The notes beneath the pieces were generated by a model that searched no databases, had not been told where the DNA came from, and saw only the letters and a program-made list of their open reading frames with translations. From positions 9,100 to 73,099 of the forward strand of contig JBAYFP010000004.1 of NCBI GenBank assembly GCA_041667145.1: DNA of 64,000 nucleotides, given 5' to 3'. This document shows, one piece after another, positions 3,508-63,316 of the stretch. The first letter of the stretch is position 1. Every line of letters starts with the position of its first letter. The position numbers and the translations under genes are program-made. The DNA is from Minisyncoccota bacterium (GTDB lineage: Bacteria; Patescibacteriota; Minisyncoccia; Phycocordibacterales; UBA9973).

Positions 3508-3584
3508 TTTAAATAGGAGTATTATATAAGTATGAATTCTGAAACAAAGATACATTCGGCGAGCTCAGTACAAGTCTGTCAAAA

Positions 3585-3622
3585 CCCCAGTACTAGAGCA
3601 AAGCTCAGTATGGGGCAGGCTG
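3585..3622. repeat. Palindromic hairpin repeat, short-loop copy of an 'ATCCCAGTAsTA...TAsTACGGGACAGG' family
   Basis: CCCCAGTACTAGAGC-AAA-GCTCAGTATGGGGCAGG. Near-identical inverted copy at 5347..5386; related copies at 13542, 51329 and 63240. Confidence 0.55.
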
Positions 3623-3631
3623 TAAAAAGAT

Positions 3632-5347
3632 ATGAGTAAAAATACTGAAAGTAAAATATGTCAGAATTGCAAGGTTGAATTTTTGATTGAGCCAGAAGAT
3701 TTTAAATTTTATGAAAAAATGAAGGTTCCTGCGCCGACTTGGTGCCCGGAATGCAGAACGATAAGAAGAATGATGTATAGGAATGAGCGTTCTTTGTACA
3801 AACAAGATTGTGATCTTTGTAAAAAACCTACGATCTCCATGTATAATCCGGATTATAAATATATTGTTTATTGTACAGGTTGTTATACTTCGGATAATTG
3901 GGATCCTATGAATTTTGGAAAGGATTACGATTTTTCTCGTTCTTTTTTTGAACAACTTGGTGAGCTATTTAGAAGTGTCCCTCGAAGAGCATTGTACCAA
4001 GATTTTGCCGTGAATAGTGAATACACAAATCAAGCAGTTTATATGAAAAATTGTTATCTTTGTTTTGGAGGACATCATTATGAGGATAGTAGTTATTGTG
4101 CGAATGATTTCTTTTTGAAAAATTGTTTGGATGTTGATTTTTCACACAAAAGTGAATTTTGTTTTGAATCATTGCATTTAAAGGATTGTTTCAGAGTGAG
4201 ATATGGATATTATTCCGAAAACTGTATGGATTCTTGGTTTATTTATGGTTGCCGTAACTGTTCTAATTGTGTTGGGTGTACGAATTTATTGAACGAAACA
4301 CACTGTATTTTAAATGAGCAGTACACAAAAGAAGAATATGAAAAAAAATTAAAAGAAATGGATCTTTCTAAATCAGAAAATTTAGAAAAAATGGATAAGA
4401 TATTTTGGGAGAATTCGTTAAACTTCCCAAGAAAGTATGCCAATATAAAAAATATTGTAAATTCCACAGGAGATGACTTAGAGCAAGTTAGAAATTGTAA
4501 ACATTCTTTTTCTCTTACAGAAGATGAAAATATAAAATATTCCTTTTTTGTTCCAACTGGGGCAAAAGATTGTTTTGACTTAGACCATGTAGGGCTTGGT
4601 ACGAGTGAGAGTTATGAACTTCATAGTGCATTTGGAGGTAATAGAGTTTCATTTTCTAATCGGGTTTATTATTCACATGACGTAGAATTTTCAGATGATG
4701 TCTATGATAGTGAAAATATTTTTGCTTGTGCAAGCTTGCGGAAAAAATCCCATTGTATTTTTAATAAACAATATTCTAAAGAAGAGTATGAAATATTGAT
4801 AAAAAAAATAAAGGAACACATGGATACAATGCCATATGTTGATAAAAATGGAAGAATGTTTAAGTATGGCGAATTCTTTCCTATAGAGATCATACCTTTT
4901 AGTTATACAGATTCAGTAGTGCATGAATATTTTCCTTTGACAAAAGAAAAAATATTAGAAAAAGGGTATAAGTATACAGAACCTGAAACAAAAAACTATA
5001 AACCAACTATTTTACCCCATCAATTACCTTCAATAGAAAATGCAGATGAAAAAATTTTGCAAGAAATTATTCAATGTGACCATATGAGAAATTGTAATGA
5101 TAGGTGTACTCTGGCTTTTAGAATAATTCAAAATGAGTTAAACATTTGTAAAATGTTAGGAATTCCATTGCCAAAATTGTGTCCGAATTGTCGTCATATG
5201 TCTAGAATGAATCTTTTGAATCCACCGAGATTATATTCTAGGAAATGTATGAAACCTGATTGTACCAATGAATTTGAAACTCCTTATTCTCCTGACAGAC
5301 AAGAAATAGTATACTGTGAAAAATGCTACCAGCAAGAAGTATATTAG
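3632..5347 (+). CDS. Cysteine-rich multi-zinc-ribbon protein, unknown function (paralog A)
   Basis: 571-aa ORF. N-terminal CxxC...CxxC (CQNCK...WCPECR). Internal repeated CxxC modules followed by (Q/E)Y(T/S)KEEY. C-terminal CxxC...CxxC (CPNCR...CEKCYQQE). About 40-45% identical over its full length to ORF 45183..46886. Confidence 0.8.
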   Translation: MSKNTESKICQNCKVEFLIEPEDFKFYEKMKVPAPTWCPECRTIRRMMYRNERSLYKQDCDLCKKPTISMYNPDYKYIVYCTGCYTSDNWDPMNFGKDYDFSRSFFEQLGELFRSVPRRALYQDFAVNSEYTNQAVYMKNCYLCFGGHHYEDSSYCANDFFLKNCLDVDFSHKSEFCFESLHLKDCFRVRYGYYSENCMDSWFIYGCRNCSNCVGCTNLLNETHCILNEQYTKEEYEKKLKEMDLSKSENLEKMDKIFWENSLNFPRKYANIKNIVNSTGDDLEQVRNCKHSFSLTEDENIKYSFFVPTGAKDCFDLDHVGLGTSESYELHSAFGGNRVSFSNRVYYSHDVEFSDDVYDSENIFACASLRKKSHCIFNKQYSKEEYEILIKKIKEHMDTMPYVDKNGRMFKYGEFFPIEIIPFSYTDSVVHEYFPLTKEKILEKGYKYTEPETKNYKPTILPHQLPSIENADEKILQEIIQCDHMRNCNDRCTLAFRIIQNELNICKMLGIPLPKLCPNCRHMSRMNLLNPPRLYSRKCMKPDCTNEFETPYSPDRQEIVYCEKCYQQEVY

Positions 5348-5386
5348 GGGTGCCTGTCCCGTAGTGAGCTTTGCTCTACTACTGGG
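5347..5386. repeat. Palindromic hairpin repeat, inverted copy of the 3585 element
   Basis: Its reverse complement, CCCAGTAGTAGAGCAAAGCTCACTACGGGACAGGCACC, matches 3585..3622 at about 32 of 38 positions. Confidence 0.55.
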
Positions 5387-5412
5387 ATTATCAACGGGAG
5401 GTGTATTAAAAA

Positions 5413-5889
5413 ATGAAAAAACAACAAAATATTTTAATAATTCATGATGTGAGAAGTGTGACAAATGTCGGGGCGATGTTTCGTACTGCTGATGCGGCTG
5501 GCATAAATAAAATTTATTTGACTGGATATACACCTACTCCACTTGATCGCTTTGGGAAAATTCGCAAGGATATGGCAAAGTCTGCCCTTGGAGCAGAAAA
5601 TTTTGTGTCTTGGGAATATAAAAAAAATGCATTGTTATTTGTTGATAAACTAAAGAAAGAGGGGTATTTGATTATTGGTATTGAGCAAAGTAAAAAATCA
5701 ATTGATTATAAAAAAGTGAAAACAAATAATAAAAATGTTTTTATTATGGGTGCTGAAGTGACAGGAATACCCAAAAATATACTCAAGAAATGTGACATAA
5801 TTGCCGAGATTCCAATGTTTGGGAAAAAAGAATCCCTTAATGTTTCAGTTGCCTGTGGAATTGCTCTTTTTGGAATTTTAAGAATATAA
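5413..5889 (+). CDS. SpoU/TrmH-family RNA 2'-O-methyltransferase (SPOUT)
   Basis: 158 aa. TrmH-like motifs (NVGAMFRTADAAG, IMGAEVTGIP, ESLNVSVACGIALF). SD GGGAGGTG lies upstream. Confidence 0.8.
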   Translation: MKKQQNILIIHDVRSVTNVGAMFRTADAAGINKIYLTGYTPTPLDRFGKIRKDMAKSALGAENFVSWEYKKNALLFVDKLKKEGYLIIGIEQSKKSIDYKKVKTNNKNVFIMGAEVTGIPKNILKKCDIIAEIPMFGKKESLNVSVACGIALFGILRI

Positions 5890-9014: not shown

Positions 9015-12008
9015 TTAGCCGTGTTTTTTACTTGTTTCTTCAGGTGCAACAACCATTCGTTGAGATCCGTAATATGCTTTTCTTATTGCTAAAGCTAACA
9101 AGACGAGGAATAGAATAATTAAAAGCCAGCCCAATAAAGTATTGGGTAAAAAACCACTACCTGCTAGAAGTGCTAGTGCTCCTAGTGGGGTAGTATTGTT
9201 TTCTTCTGTTGTTGTAGGTTCACTCCAAACTTGTGCAGAGACATTGGCATTTACTGATTGTGGCTGACCTGAAGGATCAATATAACTCAATATTGCAGGG
9301 AAATTCAAATTTGTTCCGGCGGGGATGTTGTCGCGCACTCGTACTCGGACTGTCACTGTGCCTTGCCCATTTGCTTTCAATGTTCCTAAGTTAAAGATTA
9401 AATTATTACCAGAAATATTTGGGTTACTTGGTGTTGAGGATATGTAGTTTACTTCGTATGGGAGAATCATTTGTAGAGTAAGGTTGGTGATTGCTCCTGT
9501 ACCAATATTTTGATAATTTACAGTGTAATTAATTTCATCTCCCGGACGTGGTCTAGTATTATCTATAGTAGGAACTATTGGTTGATTGCGGTCAACGGAA
9601 GAAGTGATAAGTACTAGAGATGTCGGAGCAGGTTTTGGATTGTTATTAGTAATTACTTGTGCGCGTACATTAACCATTACAGAATCGGTGGATGTTCCGA
9701 AACTATTACTACAAGTGATGGTGTATGTTTTGCTCCCACTCAACGATCCAGTGTAAAAACTAGCTGGGCCAATACTTTTTTCACCTGCCCATCCGATAGA
9801 TCCACCACTTGCATAACAAGATGTTGCACTAATTGTGCCCCATCGTATTGAAGTTGATCCATTGTAAGCTAGATTTGTTTGGTCTGCATCAATGACTACT
9901 GTCGGTTGGTTGTTGATCACTATTGGTATTGGTTGTTGTTGAGTCACGACGTTCACTGTCACTGACTTTATGTCAGAATTACCATTGTAATTTGAACAAG
10001 AAATAGTGTAAGTCGTAGTATATGTTAAAGGGCCAGTGTTAAAAGTATTAGAATAAATGTTTCGTGACCCTGCCCAACCATTACTGCCACCGCTTGCATA
10101 ACAAGATGTCGCATTGATCGGGTACCAACGAATTATAGTACTTCCATTATAAACGACATTTTGTTGATCGGCTGTGAGACTGACGCTTACTGTCGGTCGA
10201 TAATTATTGTAATAATAGTCGCAAGGCAATGTCCCTCTGTAGTTTGTTGCATCGGGGTCCTGACAAGTTGAAACTCGGTGGTAATAACTACATGGTAACG
10301 TTTCTCTGTAGTTTGTTGCATTTGGGTCTTGGCAAGTTAAGATTCGTCTGTAGTAGTCGCAAGGCAATGTTCCTCTATAATTTGTTGCATTTGGGTCTTG
10401 GCAAGTTAAGACTGGTTGGTTTCCGACATAAACTGTTACTAGATCAGAATCTGACCCGACATTATTTGTACAAGTAATACTGTAAGTCGTAGTTGCATAC
10501 AATGCTCCAGTGTAGAAATTACTTGATAAACTATTGTTTGTATTGAAGTTTGTTCCATAACAAGATGTTGCTCTTTCTGATTTCCAAGTGAGGTAAGTGG
10601 AACCACCATAAGAAAGGTTTGTATCAGTCGCTTTTAGTGTCACAGTTGGGGCTTGTGGTATTACAATAGATGAACATGTACTCCCATTCCATGAAGTTCC
10701 TGAAGCACAACTTGAAGTTGCTGTCGCTTGGTCGAGAAGAATAGAACTATTATAAAGATAAAAAGTTTGAGAACTATAAGGAATCGAAACCGATAAATTA
10801 TATCCTGAATTTGCATTGGAAATATTTACGTTTCCTGATTTAGTGACAGCAGAAATACCTTGTGGATTTATTGTGTCCCATGTGAGATTTACATTACAAC
10901 TATTATTTCCTGAAGGGATGATACATGAAGAAGGGTTGAGAGTAAGACTACCAGACATTTGTAATTGCTGTTGACGGACTGTTATGTCCACGAATTCTGT
11001 GGCGTTTCCCCCTGGCCCAGTACATGTGATTGAGTAAGTTTTATTTGAATATAAAGCTCCAGTTGATTCAGTTGTTGTGTTAGAAGAAGCTGTTTTTGGT
11101 CCATACCAAGAACCAGTTGCATTACATGATGTTGCATTAGTTGAAGACCAAGATAATGTAGAAACACCACCGTATGATACTGTCATTGGAGACGCAGTTA
11201 GTGTGACAGTAGGGCGAGGTGTGACTTGTCCATTTACAGTTACACTTGTAAAAGCTTTTGCTTCTCCTGCACTATTAGTACAAGTAATATTAAAAGTTTT
11301 TGTTGAATATAAAGCTCCTGTAGCTTGGCTACCAGAATTTGCTCTGCTTCCAGACCAACCATCTCCACTTGCGATACAAGTCGGATTATTGGTTGAAGAC
11401 CAAAAAATAGTAGAAGAACCTCCGTAAGGGACTTGTGTAGGATTTGCATAAATAGTGACAGTAGGAGGATATGTGATTACAACACATGCTGGATTTGTAT
11501 ATGTTTGAGAAGAAGGACCTGAACAAGTTGCTCCTCCATTAGCAGGACTTGGGTTTGTACATGTACGAGTTTGAACTCCTGAGATTCCACAAGAAGTGTC
11601 TTTTGCACTCCAATCACTCCAGCCACCGTTTATGGGAGTTGGGGTTACGGGGCATGCGGGGGTGGTAAAAGTTTCAGTTGTAGCAGGTATATAAGTACCA
11701 TCACTTTGCACAGCTAATCTATAATAGTAGTTGGTATTTTGGCTTAATCCTGATAAATTAGCACTTACTTCTTTATCATAATTAAATTGCTGATATCCAA
11801 TTCTTGTTCCGTTACCATTTTGGACTGTTGTTCTATCATTTCCCCATTCAAACCAAGCATTCACAGTAGTGTTGTTTGGCCATACATTCCCATATATAGT
11901 TGCACTATTACAGGTGACGTCTGGAATTCTGGCGAAAGCGGTGTTGACACCACAAAAGAGCCCTATAAGAGTTAAAGCGATTAATATGTTTGATTTGATT
12001 TTAGTCAT
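9015..12008 (-). CDS. Large secreted or cell-surface protein with repeated Ig-like/fibronectin-like domains and an LPxTG-like C-terminal anchor
   Basis: 997 aa. N-terminal signal peptide (MTKIKSNILIALTLIGLFCGVNTAFA). Several ~90-aa repeats (…YGG.STL.WSSTNATSC…TGALYS.KTY.ITCT). Three ~24-aa tandem repeats (TCQDPNATNYRGTLPCDYY). C-terminal LPNTL, then a hydrophobic helix and a KAYYG basic tail. Confidence 0.8.
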   Translation of the reverse strand: MTKIKSNILIALTLIGLFCGVNTAFARIPDVTCNSATIYGNVWPNNTTVNAWFEWGNDRTTVQNGNGTRIGYQQFNYDKEVSANLSGLSQNTNYYYRLAVQSDGTYIPATTETFTTPACPVTPTPINGGWSDWSAKDTSCGISGVQTRTCTNPSPANGGATCSGPSSQTYTNPACVVITYPPTVTIYANPTQVPYGGSSTIFWSSTNNPTCIASGDGWSGSRANSGSQATGALYSTKTFNITCTNSAGEAKAFTSVTVNGQVTPRPTVTLTASPMTVSYGGVSTLSWSSTNATSCNATGSWYGPKTASSNTTTESTGALYSNKTYSITCTGPGGNATEFVDITVRQQQLQMSGSLTLNPSSCIIPSGNNSCNVNLTWDTINPQGISAVTKSGNVNISNANSGYNLSVSIPYSSQTFYLYNSSILLDQATATSSCASGTSWNGSTCSSIVIPQAPTVTLKATDTNLSYGGSTYLTWKSERATSCYGTNFNTNNSLSSNFYTGALYATTTYSITCTNNVGSDSDLVTVYVGNQPVLTCQDPNATNYRGTLPCDYYRRILTCQDPNATNYRETLPCSYYHRVSTCQDPDATNYRGTLPCDYYYNNYRPTVSVSLTADQQNVVYNGSTIIRWYPINATSCYASGGSNGWAGSRNIYSNTFNTGPLTYTTTYTISCSNYNGNSDIKSVTVNVVTQQQPIPIVINNQPTVVIDADQTNLAYNGSTSIRWGTISATSCYASGGSIGWAGEKSIGPASFYTGSLSGSKTYTITCSNSFGTSTDSVMVNVRAQVITNNNPKPAPTSLVLITSSVDRNQPIVPTIDNTRPRPGDEINYTVNYQNIGTGAITNLTLQMILPYEVNYISSTPSNPNISGNNLIFNLGTLKANGQGTVTVRVRVRDNIPAGTNLNFPAILSYIDPSGQPQSVNANVSAQVWSEPTTTEENNTTPLGALALLAGSGFLPNTLLGWLLIILFLVLLALAIRKAYYGSQRMVVAPEETSKKHG
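10205..10425. repeat. Three ~72-bp tandem DNA repeats inside the surface-protein gene; they encode the TCQDPNATNYRGTLPCDYY repeats
   Basis: The repeated unit …ctctgtagtttgttgcatygggtcytgrcaagtt… appears three times. Confidence 0.7.
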
Positions 12009-13082: not shown

Positions 13083-13541
13083 CTAAAAATTAGATGTTTT
13101 TACTTGAGGTCTTATCTGAATTGTTTTTGCAGTAATACTGCCGTCTGTGTTTGCAGTACCTGTAACTATGATTTGTGTGCCAGTTGCCAAATCATTTAGA
13201 GAACCAGTAATTGTTTTTGTAACTTCAGTACTAGTACCTAAAAGAATAATTTTTGAACCAACTTGAGTGTTTGTGGAATTTGGATCTATATTATTTATTT
13301 TGACTGTGACACTATTTGCATCTTTAGAAAGTATTTCTCCTGAAACAAAACCACTACCATTCATTCTGCCATTTCTGTTTCCCATACCAGGTTGTCCGGT
13401 TCTGTTTTGTCCGTTTTGGTTGAATCCATTTGATCCAAACAGTGGAATCTGACTTTTTCCATAAGTCATACCCCCATAAAATACTCCCATTAAAATTATA
13501 ATTCCTACTATTGCATAAATAATTGTGTTTTTATTTTTCAT
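13083..13541 (-). CDS. Small N-terminally anchored protein, paralog of 17248..17751
   Basis: 152 aa. N-terminal TM helix. C-terminal domain alignable with 17248..17751 (G.I..I....I...T..V.LL..T....S.L.D.IIV.G..N..G.I.AK.I...P). Confidence 0.6.
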   Translation of the reverse strand: MKNKNTIIYAIVGIIILMGVFYGGMTYGKSQIPLFGSNGFNQNGQNRTGQPGMGNRNGRMNGSGFVSGEILSKDANSVTVKINNIDPNSTNTQVGSKIILLGTSTEVTKTITGSLNDLATGTQIIVTGTANTDGSITAKTIQIRPQVKTSNF

Positions 13542-13654
13542 CCCAGTACTAAAATTTTATTTACTATTAATAATATTGACCTTTTTTATCTCCCATCCTT
13601 TATTTTTAATATTTATGTAATTTAATTAAAAATTTAGTACGGGACAAGTATTTT
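13542..13654. repeat. Long-loop member of the CCCAGTACT/AGTACGGGACAGG hairpin family, abutting the start codon of 13083..13541
   Basis: CATCCCAGTACTAAAATTTTA...AAAATTTAGTACGGGACAAGTATTT. Both arms are nearly identical to the copy at 63240..63316. Confidence 0.55.
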
Positions 13655-13658
13655 TTTT

Positions 13659-13680
13659 CTAGAACCTAGAACCTAGAAAC
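13659..13680. repeat. Short tandem repeat (CTAGAAC)x3
   Basis: ctagaacctagaacctagaaac. Confidence 0.4.
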
Positions 13681-13684
13681 TAAT

Positions 13685-15600: not shown

Positions 15601-17241
15601 TTATCTTTCAAAACCTCCTGCACCTCCTATGGCACGAGTGCCGCCACCTCCTAGTAGGGAAGAAGTTGATGCAGTGCTCGTCGTGGTACTGGTGATAGTA
15701 CGAGAAACTATTTGATCGCCCTCCTTTAAACCAGAGACAATTTCTGTGTTTGTATCATCTGAAATTCCTGTTTCTACTATTACTTGAGAAGGCGCCACCT
15801 TTGAAGGTGTTCCAAGTGAACCTGTGGTTGGTGAGGCGAGTGGTGGTGTAAACATTTGAACATATTTTGTAACACCTTGATTTTTTATGGCGCTTGAAGG
15901 TACTATCAGTACGTCTGTTTTTGAATTGGTGATGATGGAAGCTGAGACACTCATCCCTGGTTTCACTTGGCTATTTTCAGTATCAAAAGCAATTTTTACA
16001 TTATATGATACGACACCTTGGGAAACTGTACCTATGGTGTCGATTTGTGCTACGTAGCCAGTCAATGACAGATTGTCTATTGCATCGAATGTAATTGTCG
16101 CTTTTTGTCCGAGTTTTATTTTTGCGACATCTACTTCATTCATGGATAAGGTAGCTATTTGTTGATTCGTTATTATAGAACCAAGTGTACCTGAAGATGT
16201 ATCTCCGACTTTAGCTATCACACTTGCTATAGTTCCATTGAATGGAGCGAAAACATAATAATCTTTTAATTTATCTTTAGCGTCTTGTAGAGCATTTTCT
16301 TTTTGCTTCACAGATAATTCTGAAGATTGTAAATCTAGATCAGTGTTAGTGAATGAATCTTTAGAGTTTTTTATGGTTGTTTCTGATGTTAGTAGATCAT
16401 TATAATATCCAGTGGTTGTATTTTTGTATGTTAATAAAGTACTTTGATAAGAAGAGAGTGAAGAATTATTTTCAGTATCTTCTGTCATAAAAACTATGTA
16501 GGTTCGTAAATTTTTTATTGCATCATTTGTAAGACTAGTCATTGCATAAGTTTGATTGATTATTTTTTCTATATCTTCTTTAGGAGAGTCATGTGTGAGC
16601 GTAATATAATACCTTCTATTTTCATCGAATGAATTTTTTGCATCATAGTATGTATCCTCGGCTTTGTTTCTGTAATCTAATGCGGTTTTTCCATTCATTC
16701 GAGCGACATTATCTGAGAGTTCTTGATTATTAAGAATACTTTCAATACCAGTCATTACGTCTGATAAATCTAAGAATGTGTTTGAAACTGTATTAAAGCC
16801 ATCCTCATAAGCTTTTGATAGATCAGTATTTAGACTATCATTTGAATTTTGGAGTTTAAATTTATCCAAAGAAATTTGTGCAGACTGTAAGTTTATTTCT
16901 GCATCACGAACAGCTTTTTGTGCATCTCCATTATCGATAGAGAAAAGTGTTTTTCCTTTATAAACAATATCTCCGGGTTTAACTCCAACGTAAGTGATGG
17001 TGCCTGATACATTTGCTTTTAAATCAATTTGATTAGAACTTTCCACTTGTCCGCTTGCAGAGACAGATGAGACGATGGTGCCTTTTTGTACTGTTGTTGT
17101 CACATATTGTGTTTCGCCAGTTGTGTTTGTAGCTTTTCCGTAGCCCCAATACCCTATATATAAGACCATTATCAAGACGATGATGCTTATTATTTTATGG
17201 GAAAAAATATAAAATTTTATTTTTTTAATGTATTCTTGCAT
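15601..17241 (-). CDS. HlyD/MacA-family periplasmic adaptor (membrane fusion protein)
   Basis: 546 aa. N-terminal TM helix, long coiled-coil segment, beta-barrel and lipoyl-like segments (VQKGTIVSSVSASGQVES…). It leads the ABC ATPase-permease operon. Confidence 0.7.
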   Translation of the reverse strand: MQEYIKKIKFYIFSHKIISIIVLIMVLYIGYWGYGKATNTTGETQYVTTTVQKGTIVSSVSASGQVESSNQIDLKANVSGTITYVGVKPGDIVYKGKTLFSIDNGDAQKAVRDAEINLQSAQISLDKFKLQNSNDSLNTDLSKAYEDGFNTVSNTFLDLSDVMTGIESILNNQELSDNVARMNGKTALDYRNKAEDTYYDAKNSFDENRRYYITLTHDSPKEDIEKIINQTYAMTSLTNDAIKNLRTYIVFMTEDTENNSSLSSYQSTLLTYKNTTTGYYNDLLTSETTIKNSKDSFTNTDLDLQSSELSVKQKENALQDAKDKLKDYYVFAPFNGTIASVIAKVGDTSSGTLGSIITNQQIATLSMNEVDVAKIKLGQKATITFDAIDNLSLTGYVAQIDTIGTVSQGVVSYNVKIAFDTENSQVKPGMSVSASIITNSKTDVLIVPSSAIKNQGVTKYVQMFTPPLASPTTGSLGTPSKVAPSQVIVETGISDDTNTEIVSGLKEGDQIVSRTITSTTTSTASTSSLLGGGGTRAIGGAGGFER

Positions 17242-25010: not shown

Positions 25011-25150
25011 TATGCGGTGCACTCGGGTATGGTACCCGTGGGTTCAACCCTTGTAAGGACATTTTAGCATCTTTTTGAGAGTAAGACCAAGGCTTGTGGG
25101 TCGCTACTTGCAAATGCCAACAAATGCCAATTTTTTGATATAATGCAAAT

Positions 25151-25846
25151 ATGAAGATGACAGTCGGCGAATTAATAGCAAAAGAAATGAAAGAAGGAAA
25201 AAGCTCTGTAACCCTCCCAAATGGGGTTCTTCCTCCTGGGGCTAAAGAAGCATTTGAATCGCTTGCTAATATGAAGAAAAACATAGAAGAACCACTTAAA
25301 AAACAGCTTGGTGCGATAAGGTCTATAACTGATATATATGGACCACAATTAGAACGAATGGCTGAAGCACATAAAATGGTTCTTGAAAATTACATTATTC
25401 CAGAAGAAAGAATTCAAAATGTTAGAATTATTAACTCTGAAAATATTGGGGCTGGATCAAATAGAAAAGAAAGCAATGTTATAGTTGCATCATACCTATT
25501 GCCTAAAAATGCTAATTGGGAAAGTCTAAGCGTTCAGTTTCTAGATGGGCATGTTGTTAATGTTTCTTATTCAGGAATGAAATCACAAAAGTTTGATTTT
25601 AAAGATATGGGCTTTATGAACATGAAAACAAATAAGCCAGATTTAAAATGGGAATTACTCCAAGCAATTGCAGAAAATAATGGAGCATTAACTAAGTCTA
25701 AATGGAACAGAAAATTTGGGCGAAACGTTAAATATGAACTGAATGAGAGATTAAAGAAATTTTTTGGTATGGATTCAAATCCTATTTCTCACTACACTAA
25801 AAAAGGAGGATATCGAGCCACTTTTTCTCTCACAGAAGTTAAATAG
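25151..25846 (+). CDS. Hypothetical protein, first gene of the AT-rich island
   Basis: 231 aa. TGATATAAT extended -10 lies 10 nt upstream. No recognised motif. Confidence 0.5.
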   Translation: MKMTVGELIAKEMKEGKSSVTLPNGVLPPGAKEAFESLANMKKNIEEPLKKQLGAIRSITDIYGPQLERMAEAHKMVLENYIIPEERIQNVRIINSENIGAGSNRKESNVIVASYLLPKNANWESLSVQFLDGHVVNVSYSGMKSQKFDFKDMGFMNMKTNKPDLKWELLQAIAENNGALTKSKWNRKFGRNVKYELNERLKKFFGMDSNPISHYTKKGGYRATFSLTEVK

Positions 25847-30195: not shown

Positions 30196-31182
30196 TTATT
30201 CTTTACTCCCATCTGCGTAAATGATGGTTGTAACTTCCCATTTATACTTTAAATTAACAAATTCAGTATCTTTTAATTTAACGTCTTCATCCATAAATTG
30301 ATTATAGTCTATTCCTGATTCCCAAACTTTACTTTGGTGCGCAGGAATTGATTTATCATAACCTACACTTATAGCTTTTATTTTATTATCAAAAATATCA
30401 TAAAAAGTTAAGACACCCTCTACTCCTTTAATATCTTTATCTGTTTCATTGGTTAGCTTTAGATTCATTTGAATTTGATCTTGATAAGTACCGTCAGTAT
30501 AATTTGCTTCATAGAAGCTCTTTTTTGTTACTTCAAGACTAACTTTATTTACTTGAGTGATTGGAGCTTGAGTATCTGCTTTAACTACTCCACCTTGTTG
30601 CAAGCTTTTACTTAACTCTTCTTTTGCCTTAGCAACATCAGAAACATGTTTTGCTGTAGAAATTGAACCCATAATAATTGCTAATACAATTAATGCCACA
30701 ATAGAAAGAACTACGCCATGTTTACTTGCTGAAGTTTCTATTTGTTTTATACCTGATGCTTCTGCTTTTTTCTCATATTTCTTTGTAACTAAATGCATAA
30801 TTATTCCTCCCGCAATTCCTACCATGAAAGCGATGATAGTTATAAATGTTCCACCAATTGCAGTTCCTATTGCACCACCAGCCTGTTCAAATTCATTAGC
30901 TGATGAAGAGATAACTTTTGAACCAACAACAAAAGTTAAAACTAATGCGGACACTGGAAGCAAGAAGAAAGATATTTCTGTTAAACGAAAAAATCTTTCT
31001 AAAATATGATTCTTCTCTGTGAATTGATATACATTCCAGATCATTAGAATCCAAATAATTAAGAACCCTATACCCATGTAAGAGTTACCAGTCATCCACG
31101 CATAATTTTGCCAAAAAATTAAAGCTGGTAACAATGCTAACAAAATCTTAAGAGACAAATGCTTTTTGATATTGTTTTCCAT
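30196..31182 (-). CDS. Hypothetical multi-pass membrane protein with a C-terminal extracytoplasmic domain
   Basis: 328 aa. Five predicted TM helices. Ser/Thr/Lys-rich beta-rich C-terminal domain. Confidence 0.55.
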   Translation of the reverse strand: MENNIKKHLSLKILLALLPALIFWQNYAWMTGNSYMGIGFLIIWILMIWNVYQFTEKNHILERFFRLTEISFFLLPVSALVLTFVVGSKVISSSANEFEQAGGAIGTAIGGTFITIIAFMVGIAGGIIMHLVTKKYEKKAEASGIKQIETSASKHGVVLSIVALIVLAIIMGSISTAKHVSDVAKAKEELSKSLQQGGVVKADTQAPITQVNKVSLEVTKKSFYEANYTDGTYQDQIQMNLKLTNETDKDIKGVEGVLTFYDIFDNKIKAISVGYDKSIPAHQSKVWESGIDYNQFMDEDVKLKDTEFVNLKYKWEVTTIIYADGSKE

Positions 31183-31232: not shown

Positions 31233-31340
31233 GCCCACCACATAGGTAGTGACCGAAGTCACTCATATCCGTTTCCAGATACGGCAGATCGTGCGACCCC
31301 ATATGATGGGTTCTTTATGCACGATCTGACTAACTTTCAC
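31233..31340. other. GC-rich, highly structured intergenic patch inside the AT-rich island; candidate ncRNA or recombination/att site
   Basis: Nested inverted repeats: GTGACCGAAGTCAC; CCGTTTCCAGATACGG; GATCGTGCGA-CCCATATGATGGG-TTCTTTAT-GCACGATC. Confidence 0.25.
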
Positions 31341-31467
31341 CATGCCTTTATTCCTAAAGGTTTAGGCTACTTAAACTATTAACTTGTAAAGAAATTATAC
31401 CTTATTTTTTAAGGTCGCACCATATTAGCTCACATTTAAATATTTGTGTAGTCGAGTTATCAACAGC

Positions 31468-34230
31468 TTATTTAATGTGGAATATTTTGATTTTTAGATT
31501 ATCAATAATTAGACTATCAGCGGATAATCCCTTAAAGAATTTAAATACTACGTTTGTTTTAAGTTCTTCAACTTTTGCTTCCTTGTCTTTGATACTATCA
31601 GGATCATTTTCTGTCCATTTCTCAACTATTTTTATTCTTTCCTGTTCAAGAGAAGAAAGATTCGTTATCGAAAGCATAAGACAATCTTCCGCCTTTTCTG
31701 CAAACTTTGTATTATCTTTATCTAAGGTTTTATCTTCTTCAATTTCAAATTCGTTTATTGAGAAAGAATCGTTTTCAAATATAAACATTGTGTCTGGGTA
31801 AGATTTATGTTCTTGGAATTTATATACAATGTAAAAAGGAATTCCATTTATTGATCCTTGGTAATAAGGACCATTATCTTCTCTTGAATTCGTTTCCTGC
31901 CAATGTGGTTTAAAATTTTCAGGATTTGTGTCTTGAATATTGAAATATCCATTAATCCACAGAACGATTGCACTGAGATTATTTTCAGCTGAAACAATTT
32001 GCCCGATTTTTTCCTTTTTTATAGGTATAATTTTACCAAACTTTTTATAAATTGATTCTAGGACTTTATTGTCTTCTGATCGAGCTAAATCTTCACCAAA
32101 TTGATTACCATTAGTATAATGAACATTCGTTTCAGCAATAAATTGTTCTTTATGTAATAAAATATTATATCCGAAACCATCTATCTTTTTTTCAGTATCC
32201 TTAGTGAATTTTTGGACTCTGTATAGCACACGAGCTTTTTCATATGAATCAAAGTTTTCTTTTACAAATTCATTAAATTTGGTATCGTCCAATGATTGTT
32301 CAATTATTTTTTTTCTTACGTCAGTTTCATATTTTTCGGCAATTTGAGAAAAAATGTTGTAAAATTTAATCTTTACAGAGATAAATTGTTCATCTGTTAT
32401 GTGTGTGATAGAAACAAAAGAATGTTGTGTCTTGTTAAGCAGTGGATCAAATTGCTGATTTCCTTCTTTAATATGTGATAACCCATCGTTATAGTTTCCA
32501 TCTTTGATATTAATAGCAAGATTTGGATCATCTACAATAATTTTAAGAATTCTATCAACTAATAAATTTTTAATGTCATCATGAATTGTCACGGTGTAGA
32601 CTTCTCCCTCAGGCATACCCCAACTATCCCAACCGAATGATCCTCTTTTTTCAGAAATTTCAATTGCTTTCAAATAAATAGAAAGATAATAGTTTAAATT
32701 ATCTTCAACATTTCTATAATAATACACTGGGTCTTTTTGTAACGAAGATAAAAGTTTAGAAAAAGCTTCTTTGTAAAAATCTCCTCCACTATTATGTTTA
32801 TATGCCCAAGCAGTAAAACCAAAAATTACAGCTTTCTTTATTAAAATTAATTCATCTAGCTGTGGAAACTCGTCGTGTTCGTAACTTTCACGAGAAAATG
32901 AATTATCTAAAAAAGCTAAGGCTTTTGAAAAAGCTTCTAGATTTTTTTTATCAAAAGCAATCTTTATTTGTCCATTCAAGCTAGAGAGAAAATTTATTGC
33001 GTAATCAATATAATTTTTATCTTTTTTGATCTTTGATTTAATAGAATATTTTGCAACTTCGTTAAGCCATCTAAAGTAGGCATCATGAAACTTAGTTTGC
33101 TCATCAGGACTAAGATCAAAAGATTCATAAAAAGCATGACCAAAATTTCTTAAGAAGATATTAAAAGTCTGAACTGATTTTTTATCTAGGGACTGGTATA
33201 TATAACCCAAAGAGAAACCAACCACTTTCTTTATACAGTCGATATCTCCTTGTTTAAATGAATACTTTTGAAGAGGAAAAATAATATCATCATTTATAAA
33301 CTGAATTATGTCCACATAAGAATCAGCTTTACAAGTAAAATGATCAACAAAACTAGAGAACTCTTTCAGTTTCAACTCAAGCCCCTTAGAATCCTCCATT
33401 TTTATTAAGGAAAACATTTCAGAATAATAAGACCTCATTTCTGCTTCAAGGTATGAAGACGGGTTTTCATATTCATCGCTAATGGAAACAAAGGATCGTA
33501 ATTTTTCCTCGTCTATTTTTTGTCCTTCTTCTTTTTTAATTCCTAATATAACATCATCAAAATCAACAGGTGCTCCATTTGAAATACTGTAAGGTATATA
33601 GTAAGAATACTTTTTAGAAATTTTCTGACTAGTTTCTTTTGTTAAATAAATTTCTTCCGTAAATAAAACATTTATATCAATGTTTGTTATATAACCAGAA
33701 CTCTGTGCCCGAATAAAATAATAAGAATCATTATTTTCATCAAGTAAAAATCTTTCCACATCCTTACCGTCCCTTTTTTCTTCTAGTAATTTCTGAAGTG
33801 CATCATTTTTAATTTTCAAATCCTCAAACTCTTTGAGTTTTTCTTTTATCACTTCTTCTTTGAATTTCTTTACAGCTCTTTCTCCTGAAAGTTCATTTTC
33901 ATTAAATTTAAACACTTCTTTAAAAGCATCAAAAATACTCAACAATAAACTAGCTGATAATATAAAATTTACAAATTCATAAAATGGACTTGGAAAAGCT
34001 AAAAAGCTTAATGCAAAAAATCCTAAACACTGAGTTATAACCTTTTTTATATTTGTATTTTTAGTGAGGGTAATTTTCTCACTTTTATCCTGAAGCCCGT
34101 ATATGTAAACCCCTAGAGAAATAACAATAGTAAAGATTACACCGTAAATTGCTATGAAGGTCTCATTTGCACAAATAAAACCAACTAAGCATGTTTGACT
34201 AATATTGGGAATTACTAAAAGATTTGACAT
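31468..34230 (-). CDS. Hypothetical 920-aa protein with an N-terminal TM region (~3 helices) and a large cytoplasmic domain of unknown function
   Basis: Long uninterrupted ORF. Coiled-coil segment (KLKEFEDLKIKNDALQKLLEEKRD). No NTP-binding or nuclease motif recognised. Confidence 0.6.
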   Translation of the reverse strand: MSNLLVIPNISQTCLVGFICANETFIAIYGVIFTIVISLGVYIYGLQDKSEKITLTKNTNIKKVITQCLGFFALSFLAFPSPFYEFVNFILSASLLLSIFDAFKEVFKFNENELSGERAVKKFKEEVIKEKLKEFEDLKIKNDALQKLLEEKRDGKDVERFLLDENNDSYYFIRAQSSGYITNIDINVLFTEEIYLTKETSQKISKKYSYYIPYSISNGAPVDFDDVILGIKKEEGQKIDEEKLRSFVSISDEYENPSSYLEAEMRSYYSEMFSLIKMEDSKGLELKLKEFSSFVDHFTCKADSYVDIIQFINDDIIFPLQKYSFKQGDIDCIKKVVGFSLGYIYQSLDKKSVQTFNIFLRNFGHAFYESFDLSPDEQTKFHDAYFRWLNEVAKYSIKSKIKKDKNYIDYAINFLSSLNGQIKIAFDKKNLEAFSKALAFLDNSFSRESYEHDEFPQLDELILIKKAVIFGFTAWAYKHNSGGDFYKEAFSKLLSSLQKDPVYYYRNVEDNLNYYLSIYLKAIEISEKRGSFGWDSWGMPEGEVYTVTIHDDIKNLLVDRILKIIVDDPNLAINIKDGNYNDGLSHIKEGNQQFDPLLNKTQHSFVSITHITDEQFISVKIKFYNIFSQIAEKYETDVRKKIIEQSLDDTKFNEFVKENFDSYEKARVLYRVQKFTKDTEKKIDGFGYNILLHKEQFIAETNVHYTNGNQFGEDLARSEDNKVLESIYKKFGKIIPIKKEKIGQIVSAENNLSAIVLWINGYFNIQDTNPENFKPHWQETNSREDNGPYYQGSINGIPFYIVYKFQEHKSYPDTMFIFENDSFSINEFEIEEDKTLDKDNTKFAEKAEDCLMLSITNLSSLEQERIKIVEKWTENDPDSIKDKEAKVEELKTNVVFKFFKGLSADSLIIDNLKIKIFHIK

Positions 34231-39177: not shown

Positions 39178-39184
39178 TTAAAAT

Positions 39185-44117: not shown

Positions 44118-44897
44118 ATGAAAATTGAGGTTTTATATGAAGATAAAGATATTTTAGCTATAGATAAGCCGTCTGGTATTTTGGTACACCCCGTACCAGA
44201 ACAAGTTCGGTACGGGGCAGGTCCAGATAAAGAAACTGTTATAGACATATTTAAGAAAAAATATCCCAAACTAGAAATCGTGCATAGATTGGATAAAGAA
44301 ACTTCCGGTGTTTTACTTTTGGCAAAAAATAAAAAAGCACATGAGTTTTTAAAAGATCAATTCAAGAACAGAGAAATAAAAAAAACTTATAATGCTGTCG
44401 TTTCAGGGAATGTAAAAAATGATCATGCCACAATAAATAAACCGATAGGCAGAAGTCCAAAAGATTTTCGTAGACGTCTCGCTGGGCGTGGAGTGAGGGG
44501 GGAACTTCGTGAAGCTATCACTGAGTACAGAGTTTTGAAAAGGTTTGAAACGCAAGCGGAGCATCATAAGATTTTTTATGTGCGAGGGTCCCAACCCGTA
44601 CTCGGGGAAGGGCGCAGTGCTAAAAAATCTTATGATGCTCCGCTGAAGTTTACCTACCTAGAAATTCATCCTAAAACTGGTAGGACACATCAGATCCGTG
44701 TTCATATGAAATTTATAAATCACCCAGTAGCTTGTGATTCTTTGTATAATCCAGATGGTCCATGTTTAGAAGGGTTCAAAAGACTAGCTCTTCACGCGAA
44801 ATCCATAGAGTTCAAAGATCTCAAAGGTAAAATAATAAAAGTGGAATCACTGTTACCGAAAGAATTCAAGAAAATTTTGTTACTAAAAGATAAATAA
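44118..44897 (+). CDS. RluA-family pseudouridine synthase; contains a ~29-aa insertion encoded by a palindromic element
   Basis: LAIDKPSGILVHP, HRLDKETSGVLLLAKN (catalytic Asp), TGRTHQIRVH. Insertion …ETQAEHHKIFYVRGSQPVLGEGRSAKKSYDAP…. Confidence 0.85.
   Translation: MKIEVLYEDKDILAIDKPSGILVHPVPEQVRYGAGPDKETVIDIFKKKYPKLEIVHRLDKETSGVLLLAKNKKAHEFLKDQFKNREIKKTYNAVVSGNVKNDHATINKPIGRSPKDFRRRLAGRGVRGELREAITEYRVLKRFETQAEHHKIFYVRGSQPVLGEGRSAKKSYDAPLKFTYLEIHPKTGRTHQIRVHMKFINHPVACDSLYNPDGPCLEGFKRLALHAKSIEFKDLKGKIIKVESLLPKEFKKILLLKDK
44556..44643. repeat. 88-bp GC-rich palindromic element inserted in-frame in rluA (comparable to Rickettsia RPE-type in-frame palindromic elements)
   Basis: Perfect 15-bp terminal inverted repeats GCGGAGCATCATAAG / CTTATGATGCTCCGC. 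Inner AGATTTTTTA / TAAAAAATCT. Contains CCCAACCCGTACTCGGGGAAGGG. Confidence 0.55.
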
Positions 44898-48070: not shown

Positions 48071-48091
48071 TTATTTTTAGTGTGATATAAT

Positions 48092-51317: not shown

Positions 51318-51328
51318 TAATTTTAGGT

Positions 51329-51375
51329 ATACCCTGTAGTAGATTTTTGTCAAAAAATTCACTACGGGGTATACT
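51329..51375. repeat. Hairpin repeat related to the ACTACGGG family; terminator-like
   Basis: TATACCCTGTAGTAGA-TTTTTGTCAAAAAATTC-ACTACGGGGTATA. Confidence 0.5.
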
Positions 51376-58218: not shown

Positions 58219-58296
58219 ATGAGAGCTAGGGTAGAACTTTGAAAAAGTTTCATTACGGGGTATAATTAAAATATTATAAAATAAATTTCTTAAATT

Positions 58297-62764: not shown

Positions 62765-63239
62765 TATATTCAACAAATTCTAGGTCATATTTATTTAATT
62801 CATCTTTTGGGTATTTTTTGCTATTTGTTTTCTGCCAAATATTTGTATCAATTGTCGGGAAAAATATATCAGCGTCGGGGAATTCTGCATCGACATGAGT
62901 AATATATAGCTTATCAGCTTTGTTTATAAACAATTTATATATTTGTCCTCCGCCAATAACAAAATTTTCTGTATTTTTATCTAAAATATTATCAAGCTCT
63001 TCTGCAGAATAAATTATTTCTATTCCCTCTGATTTGAAATTTTTATCTAGTGTAAGAATTATGTTTCTACGTTTTGGGAGTGGGCGGCCGATAGATTCGA
63101 AAGTTTTTTGACCCATTATGACAGTGTGTCCGGACGTTGTTTCTCTGAAATGTTTCATATCTCTCGGTAAATTCCAAAGAAGTTCATTCTTCTTTCCTAT
63201 TTCATTATTTTTACCGATTGCAGATATAAGTGAGATCAT
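62748..63239 (-). CDS. folA: Dihydrofolate reductase
   Basis: MISLISAIGKNNEIGKKNELLWNLPRDMKHFRETTSGHTVIMGQKTFESIG…NFVIGGGQIY. 163 aa. Confidence 0.85.
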   Translation of the reverse strand: MISLISAIGKNNEIGKKNELLWNLPRDMKHFRETTSGHTVIMGQKTFESIGRPLPKRRNIILTLDKNFKSEGIEIIYSAEELDNILDKNTENFVIGGGQIYKLFINKADKLYITHVDAEFPDADIFFPTIDTNIWQKTNSKKYPKDELNKYDLEFVEYIKKSS

Positions 63240-63316
63240 CCCAGTACTAAAATTTTAACTAATAATCTTTTATCTTTATATCCCGTAATCAAAAATTTAG
63301 TACGGGACAGGTATTT
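63240..63316. repeat. Long-loop hairpin repeat filling the entire thyA-folA intercistronic gap
   Basis: CCCAGTACTAAAATTTTA…AAAAATTTAGTACGGGACAGGTATTT. Arms nearly identical to the copy at 13542..13654. Abuts the folA ATG and the thyA stop. Confidence 0.55.

Follow-up and report, generated by a model that had tools for sequence, protein, structure and literature searches.

A family of non-coding palindromic insertions next to start codons in Candidatus Nomurabacteria/Paceibacterota

The window, that is, the whole 64-kb stretch of DNA analysed here, comes from a 90.9-kb Candidatus Nomurabacteria/Paceibacterota contig in which nearly every gene is either leaderless (TGnTATAAT-N6-ATG) or tightly coupled (TAA-N3-10-ATG). 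Exact matches to the motif CCCWGTASTA number five in the window, against 0.23 ± 0.47 times in dinucleotide shuffles, none of 100 of which reached five. A preliminary description of this DNA had placed hairpin repeats in five intercistronic gaps. All five are borne out, and every copy in the window folds into a hairpin (-17 to -28 kcal/mol; Table 1). The flanking genes are co-oriented at all five gaps, while the convergent arrangement that had also been proposed occurs at none. Copies 2, 3, and 5 lie in sense with respect to their flanking genes, and copies 1 and 4 have the inverse orientation. The full-length form is represented by copies 3 and 5, and copies 1, 2, and 4 are short hairpin relatives.

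Table 1. Hairpin copies and related features in the window, with scores against the family model R1.
Feature	Position	Strand	Score (bits)	Sequence and context
Copy 1, short-loop	3583..3620	-	14.1	Inverted relative to the flanking + genes; 16 nt ahead of the ATG of gene 3632-5347
Copy 2, short-loop	5352..5389	+	19.6	GCCTGTCCCGTAGTGAGC-TTT-GCTCTACTACTGGGATT; sense; 9 nt past the stop of the Cys-rich gene, 26 nt ahead of the spoU ATG
Copy 3, full-length class II, ~108 nt	13542..13649	-	33	Adjoins ATG 13539-13541 of the gene for a 152-aa small membrane protein
Sixth copy, short-loop, in frame, antisense	44186..44222	-	19.6	Within the RluA-like pseudouridine synthase gene 44118-44897
Copy 4, divergent hairpin relative	51326..51375	-	18.1 and 16	GGTATACCCTGTAGTAGA…TCACTACGGGGTATAC; between the stop of a P-type ATPase gene (51317) and the ATG of a pduO-type adenosyltransferase gene (51382)
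Weak partial match, loop part only	58243..58290	+	17.9	ATTACGGGGTATAAT…ATTAT; upstream of gene 58297
folA ATG	63237..63239	-		Gene 62748-63239, DHFR_1; adjoins the 3' arm of copy 5 without a gap
Copy 5, full-length class Ia	63240..63312	-	99.2	ACCTGTCCCGTACTAAATTTTTGATTACGGGATATAAAG…TTAAAATTTTAGTACTGGG (5'->3'); occupies the thyA-folA gap

The stop codon of thyA (63315-63317) lies 6 nt ahead of the GTCCC of copy 5. At the other end, the folA ATG pairs with a conserved UGU at the 5' foot of the copy (alignment pairs 12-90, 13-89, and 14-88). An alternative genetic code with UGA read as glycine was considered and rejected, as thyA merely runs off the window end and translates cleanly. The gene downstream of copy 3 has orthologs in two relatives, L129 and L048, with class II and Ic copies ahead of the ATG. 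The exact abutment of the 3' arms of copies 3 and 5 on the next gene's ATG is a point absent from the preliminary description, as is the sixth copy inside a gene. The flanks common to copies 3 and 5 were correctly recognized (81% over 52 nt), but the 70-100 nt given between their arms needs correction, since the 10-nt core arms of copy 3 are 84 nt apart and those of copy 5 are 49 nt apart.

Copies 1 and 2 are indeed mutually inverted, forming 38-nt reverse complements that are 87% complementary. The proposal that the Cys-rich gene between them (3632-5347) is a mobilized cassette is rejected, as the gene is a member of a family conserved in Patescibacteria, for which at least 5853 homologues were found, and its orthologues lie in different neighborhoods that are free of the flanking hairpins. 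The spoU ATG beyond copy 2 has a GGGAGG of its own. Copy 4 is a divergent relative, at 18 bits on the family model where copy 5 reaches 99, and its folding energy is -28.1 kcal/mol (z -6.9). In L189, the pduO-type adenosyltransferase gene carries a class Ia copy abutting its ATG. The sixth copy encodes HP[VPEQVRYGAG]PD and folds at -24.3 kcal/mol; the insertion is also found in L187 and is missing from the L018 and L153 orthologues. The match at 58243 (E 0.47) covers only R1 model positions 23-71 and is either a remnant or a chance match.

The evidence gathered outside the window supports well the view that these hairpins are a clade-wide family of non-coding palindromic insertions of Candidatus Nomurabacteria/Paceibacterota. 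The sequence examined contains at least 133 unique copies. About 130 copies beyond those of the window come from 80 related genomes and at least 119 metagenome contigs, the latter matched in a scan with the 5' arm alone, and about 25 copies lie among 80 folA-centered loci of related species. The full-length form reads 5'-ACYTGTCCCGTAsTAAATTTTTGAkTA…(loop)…AAAATTTTAsTAC(Y)GGG-3' and comprises several subfamilies in two discrete sizes, ~75 nt and ~110 nt (75-115 nt overall), all AT-rich and without coding capacity. In 96 aligned copies, its terminal inverted repeats GTCCCGTAsTAAA and TTTAsTAC(Y)GGGA(U) complement each other. The short form shares these feet but is a hairpin of 33-38 nt topped by GAGC-TTT-GCTC, an imperfect palindrome in which GTAG/GTAC is conserved but lies inside the stem. 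Short copies are found in both orientations in gaps between a stop and the next start, and now and then in frame within genes. Same-subfamily copies within one contig have loops that are 94-97% identical, above the 99th percentile of between-contig pairs.

Comparison of orthologous junctions points to insertion. The thyA-folA junction is simply TAA, 2-10 nt, and ATG in most of 80 species, and where it is filled the occupant varies: class Ia in the window and L005, Ib in L072, class II in L017, and an inverted short copy in L004. The window genome lacks the element at its rpsL and secE starts, where L004, L058, and L066 carry it, and the cysB-rplS junction is likewise filled in some species and empty in others. 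Since orthologous junctions are mostly empty and others hold different variants, the element is an insertion of MITE/REP-like character, and the earlier assignment to a dispersed REP/MITE-like palindromic family, abundant beyond the window and present or absent at orthologous junctions by species, holds. At some junctions, relatives do carry the element at the orthologous position, which the preliminary description had named as a ground against its own reading and in favor of an ordinary conserved terminator; the differing subfamilies and the mostly empty junctions argue instead for recurrent insertion. No target-site duplication was found between filled and empty thyA-folA, rpsL, and secE junctions, where ACYTGTCCC…GGG stands ahead of the ATG and neither flank is repeated. 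On the left, 11 of 19 copies are flanked by AT and 6 of 19 by TT, giving no consistent duplication.

No autonomous parent element with the same ends was seen in the ~2.1 Mb of sequence examined. Searches by tblastn with IS608 and RAYT queries led to real Y1 transposase homologues in the clade, and Y1 (HUH) homologues proved ubiquitous there (7809 matches, 70-78% identical). We examined RAYT-like genes in L005, L102, L058, L094, L019, L207, and L208 (six species, L102 being near-identical to L005), and none of the seven loci has flanking copies of the present family. Their flanks hold other hairpins, ACGGAGGC-N4-GCCTCCGT, GCGGAAGAC…GTCTTCCGC, or CTGTCAAA…TTTGACAG. A link to RAYT was dropped because these genes are bracketed by another hairpin family, and the 90.9-kb source contig itself contains no RAYT gene.

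The position of the full-length element relative to genes is very constrained. Because copies were chosen by their 5' arm only, the count is unbiased as to the 3' end. Among the 123 5'-arm matches listed, 103 have a 3' arm followed by GGGATG and a long open reading frame, and a further 5 are G>A variants of the foot. The remainder include 4 chance matches, 3 copies that start translation inside the loop, and 1 that lies 8 nt from the ATG. The ATG is abutted in ~94% of the real copies among the matches listed. More than 100 different genes carry the full-length element directly ahead of their ATG in sense orientation. These genes are functionally unrelated and include many rpl/rps genes, secY, tig, efp, frr, clpP, ftsA, rodA, ddl, serS, pheT, folA, and pduO. 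A regulon of thyA, folA, mazG, and Nudix genes was dropped as an explanation, since the downstream genes in the unbiased metagenome set are unrelated. A small upstream reading frame from the ATG in GGGGTATAATG was rejected as well, being not conserved and missing in window copy 5.

The 5' side of the element falls into two contexts. A co-oriented stop codon lies 3-15 nt ahead of GTCCC in 77 of 132 copies. Among the copies without such a stop, 10 have a TGnTAnnnT box whose end lies precisely 10 nt upstream of GTCCC, and in 7 of Ic type this distance is precisely 14 nt. This phasing places the predicted +1 on the A of ACYT, with the same -10/+1 spacing as at leaderless ATGs in the window. From this we infer that the element belongs to the transcript. 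A sigma-70 scan of copies 3 and 5 found no promoter within the loop. Across the family, no more than 5 class I copies of 96 and 4 class II copies of 36 have an extended -10 inside the loop, and TATAAT is found there in 15 copies of either class; a loop promoter is not a general feature.

The arms of the element covary. Over 18 pairs in 96 copies, 96.9% of alignment cells are paired compared with 34-54% in slid controls, a percentage that is partly circular because the finder demanded complementary arms. One pair in this alignment appears as CG, AU, UA, and GC, and orthologous mazG-like starts show compensatory arm changes (GTACTAAA/TTTAGTAC, GTATCAAA/TTTGATAC, and GTAGTAAA/TTTACTAC). The UGU:AUG pairing is invariant across the aligned copies. 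A strand test comparing G.U with A.C at variable positions gave 13 versus 7, a weak excess. The preliminary description had suggested a structured RNA, and the covarying arms agree with this, as do the intercistronic and leader positions in which the element is probably transcribed. It had also named confinement to the window and lack of covariation as grounds against its reading; further copies are present in relatives, and covariation is seen. No element matched an Rfam 15 family at the gathering score, and E-value scans of copy 5, the Ic type, and 3540-5420 gave chance-level matches only.

We propose the following mechanism, drawn from the position and pairing of the copies. The element would be transcribed. 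In ~40% of copies, the -10 box would put the transcription start at the element's first A, making the whole element the 5' leader of an otherwise leaderless gene. In the other ~60%, the element would act as an intercistronic spacer a few nucleotides after the upstream stop. The RNA is predicted to fold into an interrupted helix of ~25 bp, closed at its foot by a CCC:GGG clamp followed by UGU:AUG through two wobble pairs and one A-U pair, so that this pairing would leave only a few nucleotides between the AUG and either the transcript 5' end or the upstream stop. RNase III, a double-strand-specific RNase, may then cut the helix at its foot. The downstream cistron would regain a 5'-terminal AUG and be translated as a leaderless mRNA, and the hairpin would remain on the upstream RNA as a 3' stabilizer. 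Cleavage at the foot is suggested by the 3' distance to the ATG being rigidly zero while the 5' distance varies, for which it is the only simple explanation we see. The model suits both promoter-proximal and intercistronic contexts. It is inapplicable to copies 1, 2, and 4, as short-loop copies do not lie at start codons. Genes for RNase III and RNase J exist in the clade, with rnc at 16473-17168 of the related MAG L208; no RNase III gene was found in the source-contig sequence examined. Taken as one explanation, a mobile family that is transcribed and cut by RNase III at its foot has, in our judgment, slightly better than even prospects of being right. More tentatively, the element may be a mobile hairpin leader of a leaderless genome that inserts precisely at the +1/ATG junction and is tolerated either through an RNase III-type cut at GGG^AUG or through initiation across the helix foot; as a whole we regard this version as possible but doubtful.

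Expression might also be achieved without any cleavage. Here the folded hairpin would hold the upstream stop or 5' end near the AUG, allowing 70S re-initiation or leaderless-type initiation across the foot, a prokaryotic shunt, and it may additionally shield the 5' end from RNase J, an enzyme that the clade encodes. The 3-13 nt between stop and hairpin match the normal stop-to-ATG spacing of this genome, and the weak pairs of the AUG (two wobble, one A-U) should fray. Stem-loops that stabilize RNA from the 5' end do so when few nucleotides at that end are unpaired, and the three (ACY) left by the element fit this rule. However, a helix placed immediately 5' of the P-site codon would be expected to collide with the mRNA channel of the ribosome, and ~40% of copies have no upstream ribosome for coupling. 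Bridging also predicts slack in the hairpin-to-ATG distance, which is instead rigidly zero. We consider bridging unlikely.

The strict abutment might alternatively reflect ATG-targeting insertion combined with purifying selection elsewhere, without any processing. In its fullest form, this reading takes the family as purely selfish DNA that inserts at ATG or CAT, for instance by single-strand HUH-type transposition, with only start-adjacent insertions surviving and any effect on the RNA being tolerated. The presence of different subfamilies at one junction in different species, the near-identical copies within single contigs, and the in-frame copy in the RluA-like gene all agree with it. So do the asymmetric ends and missing target-site duplication, which recall the IS200/IS605 and REP families, and the ubiquity of Y1 (HUH) transposases in the clade. 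Against it, the RAYT-like loci are bracketed by other hairpins in seven of seven cases, and the compensatory changes between orthologous copies hint that the host is under selection to keep the pairing. Elements also stand ahead of many essential, highly expressed genes and are kept across species at 60-75% protein identity. That the family is selfish DNA and nothing more seems to us improbable.

A regulatory RNA switch fares less well still. In such a switch, the 5' arm (A) would have two alternative partners, an inner segment B (CCCGUA:UACGGG, lengthened in Ic to CUUGUCCCGU:ACGGACAAG) and the AUG-bearing 3' arm (C), with a signal or protein choosing between the two. In the Ic type, A:B does covary (UACAG:CUGUA, CCUGU:ACAGG, CUACG:CGUAG, CUUG:CAAG), the two folds are nearly isoenergetic, and copies cluster ahead of rpmB, rpsN, rplS, and secE. 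Yet segment B is missing from subfamily Ib and most class II copies, the downstream genes have no common function, and there is neither a conserved loop resembling a ligand pocket nor an Rfam match, which makes a switch very unlikely.

Ordinary intrinsic terminators, as the preliminary description proposed, or operator sites for a DNA-binding regulator can be largely set aside: hairpins do follow stop codons, and T runs come after a small number of short-loop copies in relatives (L062, L171), but a terminator scan found nothing at copies 3 and 5, none of the window copies has a U-tract behind it (tails CAGGCTGT, TATCAACG, ATGAAAAA, ACTGTCTA, and ATGATCTC), many copies have a -10 box on one side and the ATG on the other, and arm spacings of 3 to ~90 nt with covarying arms are unfit for a protein operator. 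By contrast, a true terminator hairpin with a T run is present in the window at 48036-48075.

To our knowledge, bacteria of the candidate phyla radiation are uncultured and almost nothing is known of how they initiate transcription and translation. Our search of the literature on leaderless genes and repeats in this radiation found nothing relevant. Even if only selfish DNA, the family is one of the first repeat families characterized in the radiation and an unusually clean case of position-specific insertion, having colonized the single nucleotide position before the ATG of more than 100 genes, among them ribosomal protein genes, secY, ftsA, and folA. With ribosome-binding sites nearly lacking from the genome, one must ask how translation proceeds through such a hairpin. 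Its rigid geometry makes the element a natural probe of initiation, and its route to expression, whether cleavage, shunting, or melting, would inform on initiation without Shine-Dalgarno sequences in general. Whether by foot cleavage or by initiation across the foot, a mobile hairpin leader of this kind would tie a selfish repeat to leaderless translation in the radiation in a way not described before, and would be a natural means of turning internal cistrons leaderless. In practice, it can mark true start codons and transcription starts in annotation, is a candidate portable leader for synthetic constructs, and causes contig breaks in assemblies of these genomes.

Several known systems were compared with the family. 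Integron attC sites (RYYYAAC…GTTRRRY) were rejected, as the arms CCCGTAsT / AsTACGGG lack the GTTRRRY core and the copies are scattered among housekeeping genes. The copy at 44186-44222, in frame in a coding gene and missing from orthologues, recalls the Rickettsia palindromic elements, although these measure 100-150 bp, are unrelated in sequence, and in-frame copies are exceptional in the present family. MIRU (mycobacterial interspersed repetitive unit) and ERIC/IRU sequences are reported by Supply et al. (1997) and De Gregorio et al. (2005) to be intercistronic operon repeats that are oriented with transcription and lie in the stop-to-start gap, which the present element also fills along the direction of transcription. 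MIRUs, however, are tandem minisatellite-like units with small open reading frames overlapping the flanking stop and start codons, ERICs are 127 bp long at variable positions, and neither is a hairpin with a start codon in its foot.

A mechanistic parallel is provided by phage T7, whose RNase III sites are cut on the 3' side, leaving the hairpin as a 3' stabilizer and setting the 5' end of the next mRNA. These sites are likewise interrupted hairpins between cistrons of a polycistronic RNA, and by analogy the same mechanism may apply to the present element, for which cleavage is only proposed. Unlike the element, T7 sites are not mobile, and the cistrons downstream of them keep Shine-Dalgarno leaders.

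With the REP/BIME-RAYT system, the family shares its short-loop copies, which are 33-38-nt imperfect palindromes with bulges, found in either orientation in gaps after stops; related genomes also encode RAYT-like Y1 transposases with inverted hairpin flanks. In contrast to that system, the RAYT-like genes examined have another hairpin family, and GTAG/GTAC lies inside the stem rather than 5' of it. REPs also lack the 40-90-nt insert and fixed start-codon position of the full-length form.

Correia elements of Neisseria (CREE/NEMIS) are MITEs of two size classes that are co-transcribed 5' of genes, and their hairpins, bound or cleaved by RNase III, alter expression (PMC2649163). Like the present family, they are small and non-coding, have inverted-repeat ends and two sizes, number in the hundreds of copies, often lie 5' of genes, and show insertion polymorphism, between strains in their case; they form co-transcribed hairpins, as the present element is predicted to do (PMC2649163). 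Correia elements insert at TA with duplication, and their distance from genes varies; for the present element no duplication is seen, and it lies at the ATG in ~94% of cases. Correia elements also create promoters at their own ends, while the promoter of the present element lies upstream and the element begins at the predicted transcription start. The two families have no sequence similarity, and the host described here is a bacterium of the candidate phyla radiation with leaderless genes.

All five hairpins listed in the preliminary description (copies 1 to 5, near window positions 3585, 5347, 13542, 51329 and 63240) were confirmed. Their CCCWGTASTA core has 5 exact occurrences in the window, against 0.23 ± 0.47 in dinucleotide shuffles, with none of 100 shuffles reaching five, and every copy folds into a hairpin (-17 to -28 kcal/mol). 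The short copies 1 and 2 are mutual reverse complements of 38 nt (87% complementary), while the long copies 3 and 5 have flanks in common. Copies 2, 3 and 5, read on the same strand as their neighbouring genes, have the form GTCCC-GTAsT…AsTAC-U-GGGAU, with a bulged U and a closing G·U pair; copies 1 and 4 face the opposite way. A feature overlooked in that description is that the 3′ arm of copies 3 and 5 directly meets the ATG of the following gene, which for copy 3 encodes a 152-aa membrane protein and for copy 5 is folA. The family model R1 scored copy 5 at 99 bits, compared with 19.6, 18.1 and 14.1 bits for copies 2, 4 and 1, which are relatives and not full members. Directly upstream of copy 3, positions 13658-13681 hold a heptamer, CTAGAAC/CTAGAAA, repeated three times in tandem (GGTTCTA when read on the gene strand); this repeat likewise precedes the orthologous element in the related locus L129.

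The short-loop form, CCTG-yCCCGTAsTGAGC-TTT-GCTCTAsTACyGGGr, has 14 copies in the window and the related sequences examined, in both orientations, 9-25 nt past stop codons or 10-28 nt ahead of start codons. A sixth window copy, also overlooked, lies within the coding sequence of an RluA-like gene; the insertion is shared by L187 and missing from the L018 and L153 orthologues. The same gene contains a larger in-frame palindrome (44548-44578 / 44621-44651; 31-nt arms, 90% complementary, 42 nt apart), which we take to add about 30 residues between VLKRF and TYLEIHP relative to typical RluA-family proteins and which may be an in-frame insertion from a different palindromic family. Just upstream of copy 1, GAGCTCAGTACAAGTCTGTC at 3546-3570 is similar to the inner half of the short-loop form (GCTCAGTA…) and may be what is left of an older copy.

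Gene 3632-5347, bracketed by copies 1 and 2, had been proposed to be a mobilised cassette. It belongs instead to a conserved Patescibacteria family of ~570-aa CxxC zinc-ribbon proteins with 5853 or more homologues (78% identity for the nearest among the matches listed) and two paralogues in most genomes. Its orthologues adjoin scpAB, ddl, alr, mraY or ftsW and lack these hairpins, and the bracketing thus reflects two independent insertions into ordinary gaps. The window paralogues, 3632-5347 and 45183-46886, are 79-82% identical in DNA over the first ~110 and last ~60 nt, and their proteins only ~40% identical overall. Neighbours of these genes in relatives include cell-wall genes, rplS and, in L208, rnc.

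The full-length element is widespread. About 25 further long copies were found in 80 folA-centred loci of related species, all abutting the ATG of the downstream gene. As an unbiased test, we searched a collection of metagenomes using only the 5′ arm (TGTCCCGTANNAAATTTTTG), matching at least 119 contigs. Among the 123 matches listed, 103 had a complementary 3′ arm with GGGATG and a long ORF immediately after it, and 5 more were G>A foot variants. Three showed translation starting inside the loop, with the 3′ arm read through as KILVLGL; one element stood 8 nt from its ATG, and four matches were due to chance. In the orthologous L124, L171 and L172 genes, a class II element has been recruited as an N-terminal signal/transmembrane segment. 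Nothing links the genes downstream, among which are many ribosomal protein genes, secY, secE, nusG, tig, efp, frr, hpf, clpP, ftsA, rodA, ddl, serS, pheT, gatA, folA, pduO and ABC transporter genes. There are two length classes, of about 75 and 110 nt, and the loop distinguishes subfamilies Ia, Ib, Ic and II. No Rfam family matched the element, and we found no paper describing it.

Features in the window and in loci of related Nomurabacteria/Paceibacterota genomes
Feature	Sequence	Position	Remarks
Sixth copy, short-loop	window	44186-44222	antisense, in frame inside RluA-like gene; encodes HP[VPEQVRYGAG]PD
thyA-folA junction filled	window, L005		class Ia
thyA-folA junction filled	L072		class Ib
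thyA-folA junction filled	L017		class II
thyA-folA junction filled	L004		inverted short-loop copy
thyA-folA junction filled	L009, L021, L019, L058		unrelated palindromes
In-loop ATG start	L124	7000-7200 (-)	class II element; …KSKILVLGL… read through; orthologous genes
In-loop ATG start	L171	1500-1700	as for L124
In-loop ATG start	L172	3440-3640	as for L124
Y1 (IS200/RAYT-like) gene	L005	6500-7240	~210 aa, highly conserved
Y1 gene	L058	2200-3000	as for L005
Y1 gene	L094	2200-3040	as for L005
Y1 gene	L019	7040-7900	as for L005
Y1 gene	L207	9870-10760	as for L005
Y1 gene	L208	9870-10760	as for L005

Orthologous junctions are polymorphic. The thyA-folA junction consists of TAA, 2-10 nt and ATG in most of 80 species and is variously filled in others. 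The window genome carries no element at its rpsL and secE starts; the filled counterparts are in L004, L058 and L066. The junction of the second Cys-rich paralogue with rplS is empty in the window and holds a short copy in L005 and an Ic copy in L153 and L023. At pduO, the divergent copy 4 of the window stands against a class Ia copy in L189. Filled and empty sites delimit the element as 5′-ACYTGTCCC…CYGGG-3′, immediately 5′ of ATG, with no target-site duplication in the thyA-folA, rpsL and secE comparisons. These comparisons indicate that the element is an insertion. When copies of a subfamily share a contig, their loops are 94-97% identical, against a median of 56% (99th percentile 94%) for different-contig pairs.

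Across 96 aligned class I copies, 96.9% of cells in the 18-pair long-range arm helix are paired, a value inflated because the copy finder demanded complementary arms; sliding the partners by 1-3 columns gave 34-54%. The pairing is backed by the 5′-arm-only scan and by compensatory arm changes at orthologous mazG-like starts (GTACTAAA/TTTAGTAC, GTATCAAA/TTTGATAC, GTAGTAAA/TTTACTAC), and one variable pair occurs as CG 73, AU 11, UA 4 and GC 3 times. The excess of G·U over A·C at variable positions is weak (13 vs 7). The helix foot is invariant: a CCC:GGG clamp, then UGU opposite AUG (U·G, G·U, U-A), where a symmetric DNA repeat would carry CAT. Copies are abundant outside the window and their arms covary, the opposite of an outcome that the preliminary description had named as refuting its reading.

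The closest relatives of the host are Candidatus Nomurabacteria/Paceibacterota MAGs (DHFR identity 45-77%), and the window uses the standard genetic code. Its gene starts are unusual. Most operon-first genes carry TGnTATAAT, 6 nt, then ATG (e.g. 25134-25153, 39168-39187 and 48081-48100), the signature of leaderless transcription. Internal genes have 3-10 AT-rich nt between the previous stop codon and the start, and Shine-Dalgarno sequences are rare. Elsewhere in the window, a full-length LOOT RNA (Rfam RF03000; 73.6 bits, gathering score 46.4) lies at 31248-31368 (-), between genes 30196-31182 and 31468-34230. To our knowledge this motif was known only from metagenomes, and it can here be assigned to a Nomurabacteria contig. 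Gene 9015-12008 (-), with internal repeats of 69 nt and ~285 nt at 9700-11320, encodes a repetitive surface-type protein (997 aa, CLIPPER domain match).

The 5′ boundary of the element is also phased. For 77 of 132 unique copies, the stop codon of an upstream ORF in the same orientation lies 3-15 nt ahead of GTCCC, most commonly 7-8 nt. The remaining 55 show sharply phased extended -10 boxes (TGnTAnnnT): exactly 10 nt separate the end of the hexamer from GTCCC in ten copies, and 14 nt in seven, all of Ic type, and 21 of 26 TGnTAnnnT occurrences fall within 10-14 nt. With the usual 6-nt gap, this phasing would place +1 on the A of ACYT; the window's leaderless genes keep the same distance between the box and the A of their ATG. 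The element would thus serve either as the whole 5′ leader of a gene that used to be leaderless or as a spacer between cistrons. We infer that it is transcribed, with its 5′ end coinciding with the transcription start. An internal promoter as a general feature was rejected after scans of copies 3 and 5 and box counts in the loops.

Sequence comparison establishes the position and boundaries of the element, its phasing with -10 boxes or stops, arm complementarity and covariation, and insertion polymorphism. The RNA probably folds so that the AUG sits in the helix foot, beside the 5′ end or the upstream stop codon. In our preferred reading, RNase III would cut the helix foot and regenerate a 5′-terminal AUG; an rnc gene is present in L208. 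Such cleavage would explain the rigidly zero 3′ distance to the ATG despite the variable 5′ distance, and would fit promoter-proximal and intercistronic contexts alike. Less likely rivals are bridged re-initiation across the hairpin without cleavage and a purely selfish, ATG-targeted insertion. A pairing switch (A:B/A:C) would involve inner segment B, the alternative partner of the 5′ arm, which pairs over 6 bp in Ia and up to 11 bp in Ic, with Ic covariation reaching into the 5′ flank; segment B is absent from Ib and most class II copies. An operator or terminator fares worst. The window hairpins lack a T run, in contrast to the canonical intrinsic terminator at 48036-48075 (AACCCCGTTCTAGGATCTAGGACGGGGTT, then a T run), which has a leaderless-type promoter (TGTGATATAAT) immediately after it. 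Of the initial interpretation, the REP/MITE-like, transcribed and structured character stands, whereas the terminator and cassette readings do not. For the preferred RNase III cleavage, T7 processing sites offer a precedent, as do the repeat hairpins of Correia elements (PMC2649163).

With respect to mobility, a tblastn search with transposase sequences recovered real Y1 (IS200-like) homologues, which are ubiquitous in the clade and 70-78% identical. The L058 protein matched Pfam Y1_Tnp at 34.5 bits (cut-off 23) and the L094 protein fell below it (20.3 bits); both matched the NCBIfam REP-associated tyrosine transposase below its cut-off. No Y1/RAYT-like gene was found on the 90.9-kb source contig. 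On either side of each Y1 gene lie inverted copies of a hairpin specific to the species (e.g. TACGGAGGCAACGCCTCCGTA). The start-codon element was not found at these flanks, where the hairpins are of other families (ACGGAGGC-N4-GCCTCCGT, GCGGAAGAC…, CTGTCAAA…); related hairpins fill the thyA-folA gap in L019 and L058. Inverted hairpins flanking a transposase gene are the classic REP-RAYT arrangement, and the Y1 genes with their hairpins form a REP-RAYT-like system in Nomurabacteria that is distinct from the start-codon element family. What distinguishes the latter is that it is placed with single-nucleotide precision at start codons in the leaderless genome of a candidate-phyla-radiation bacterium.
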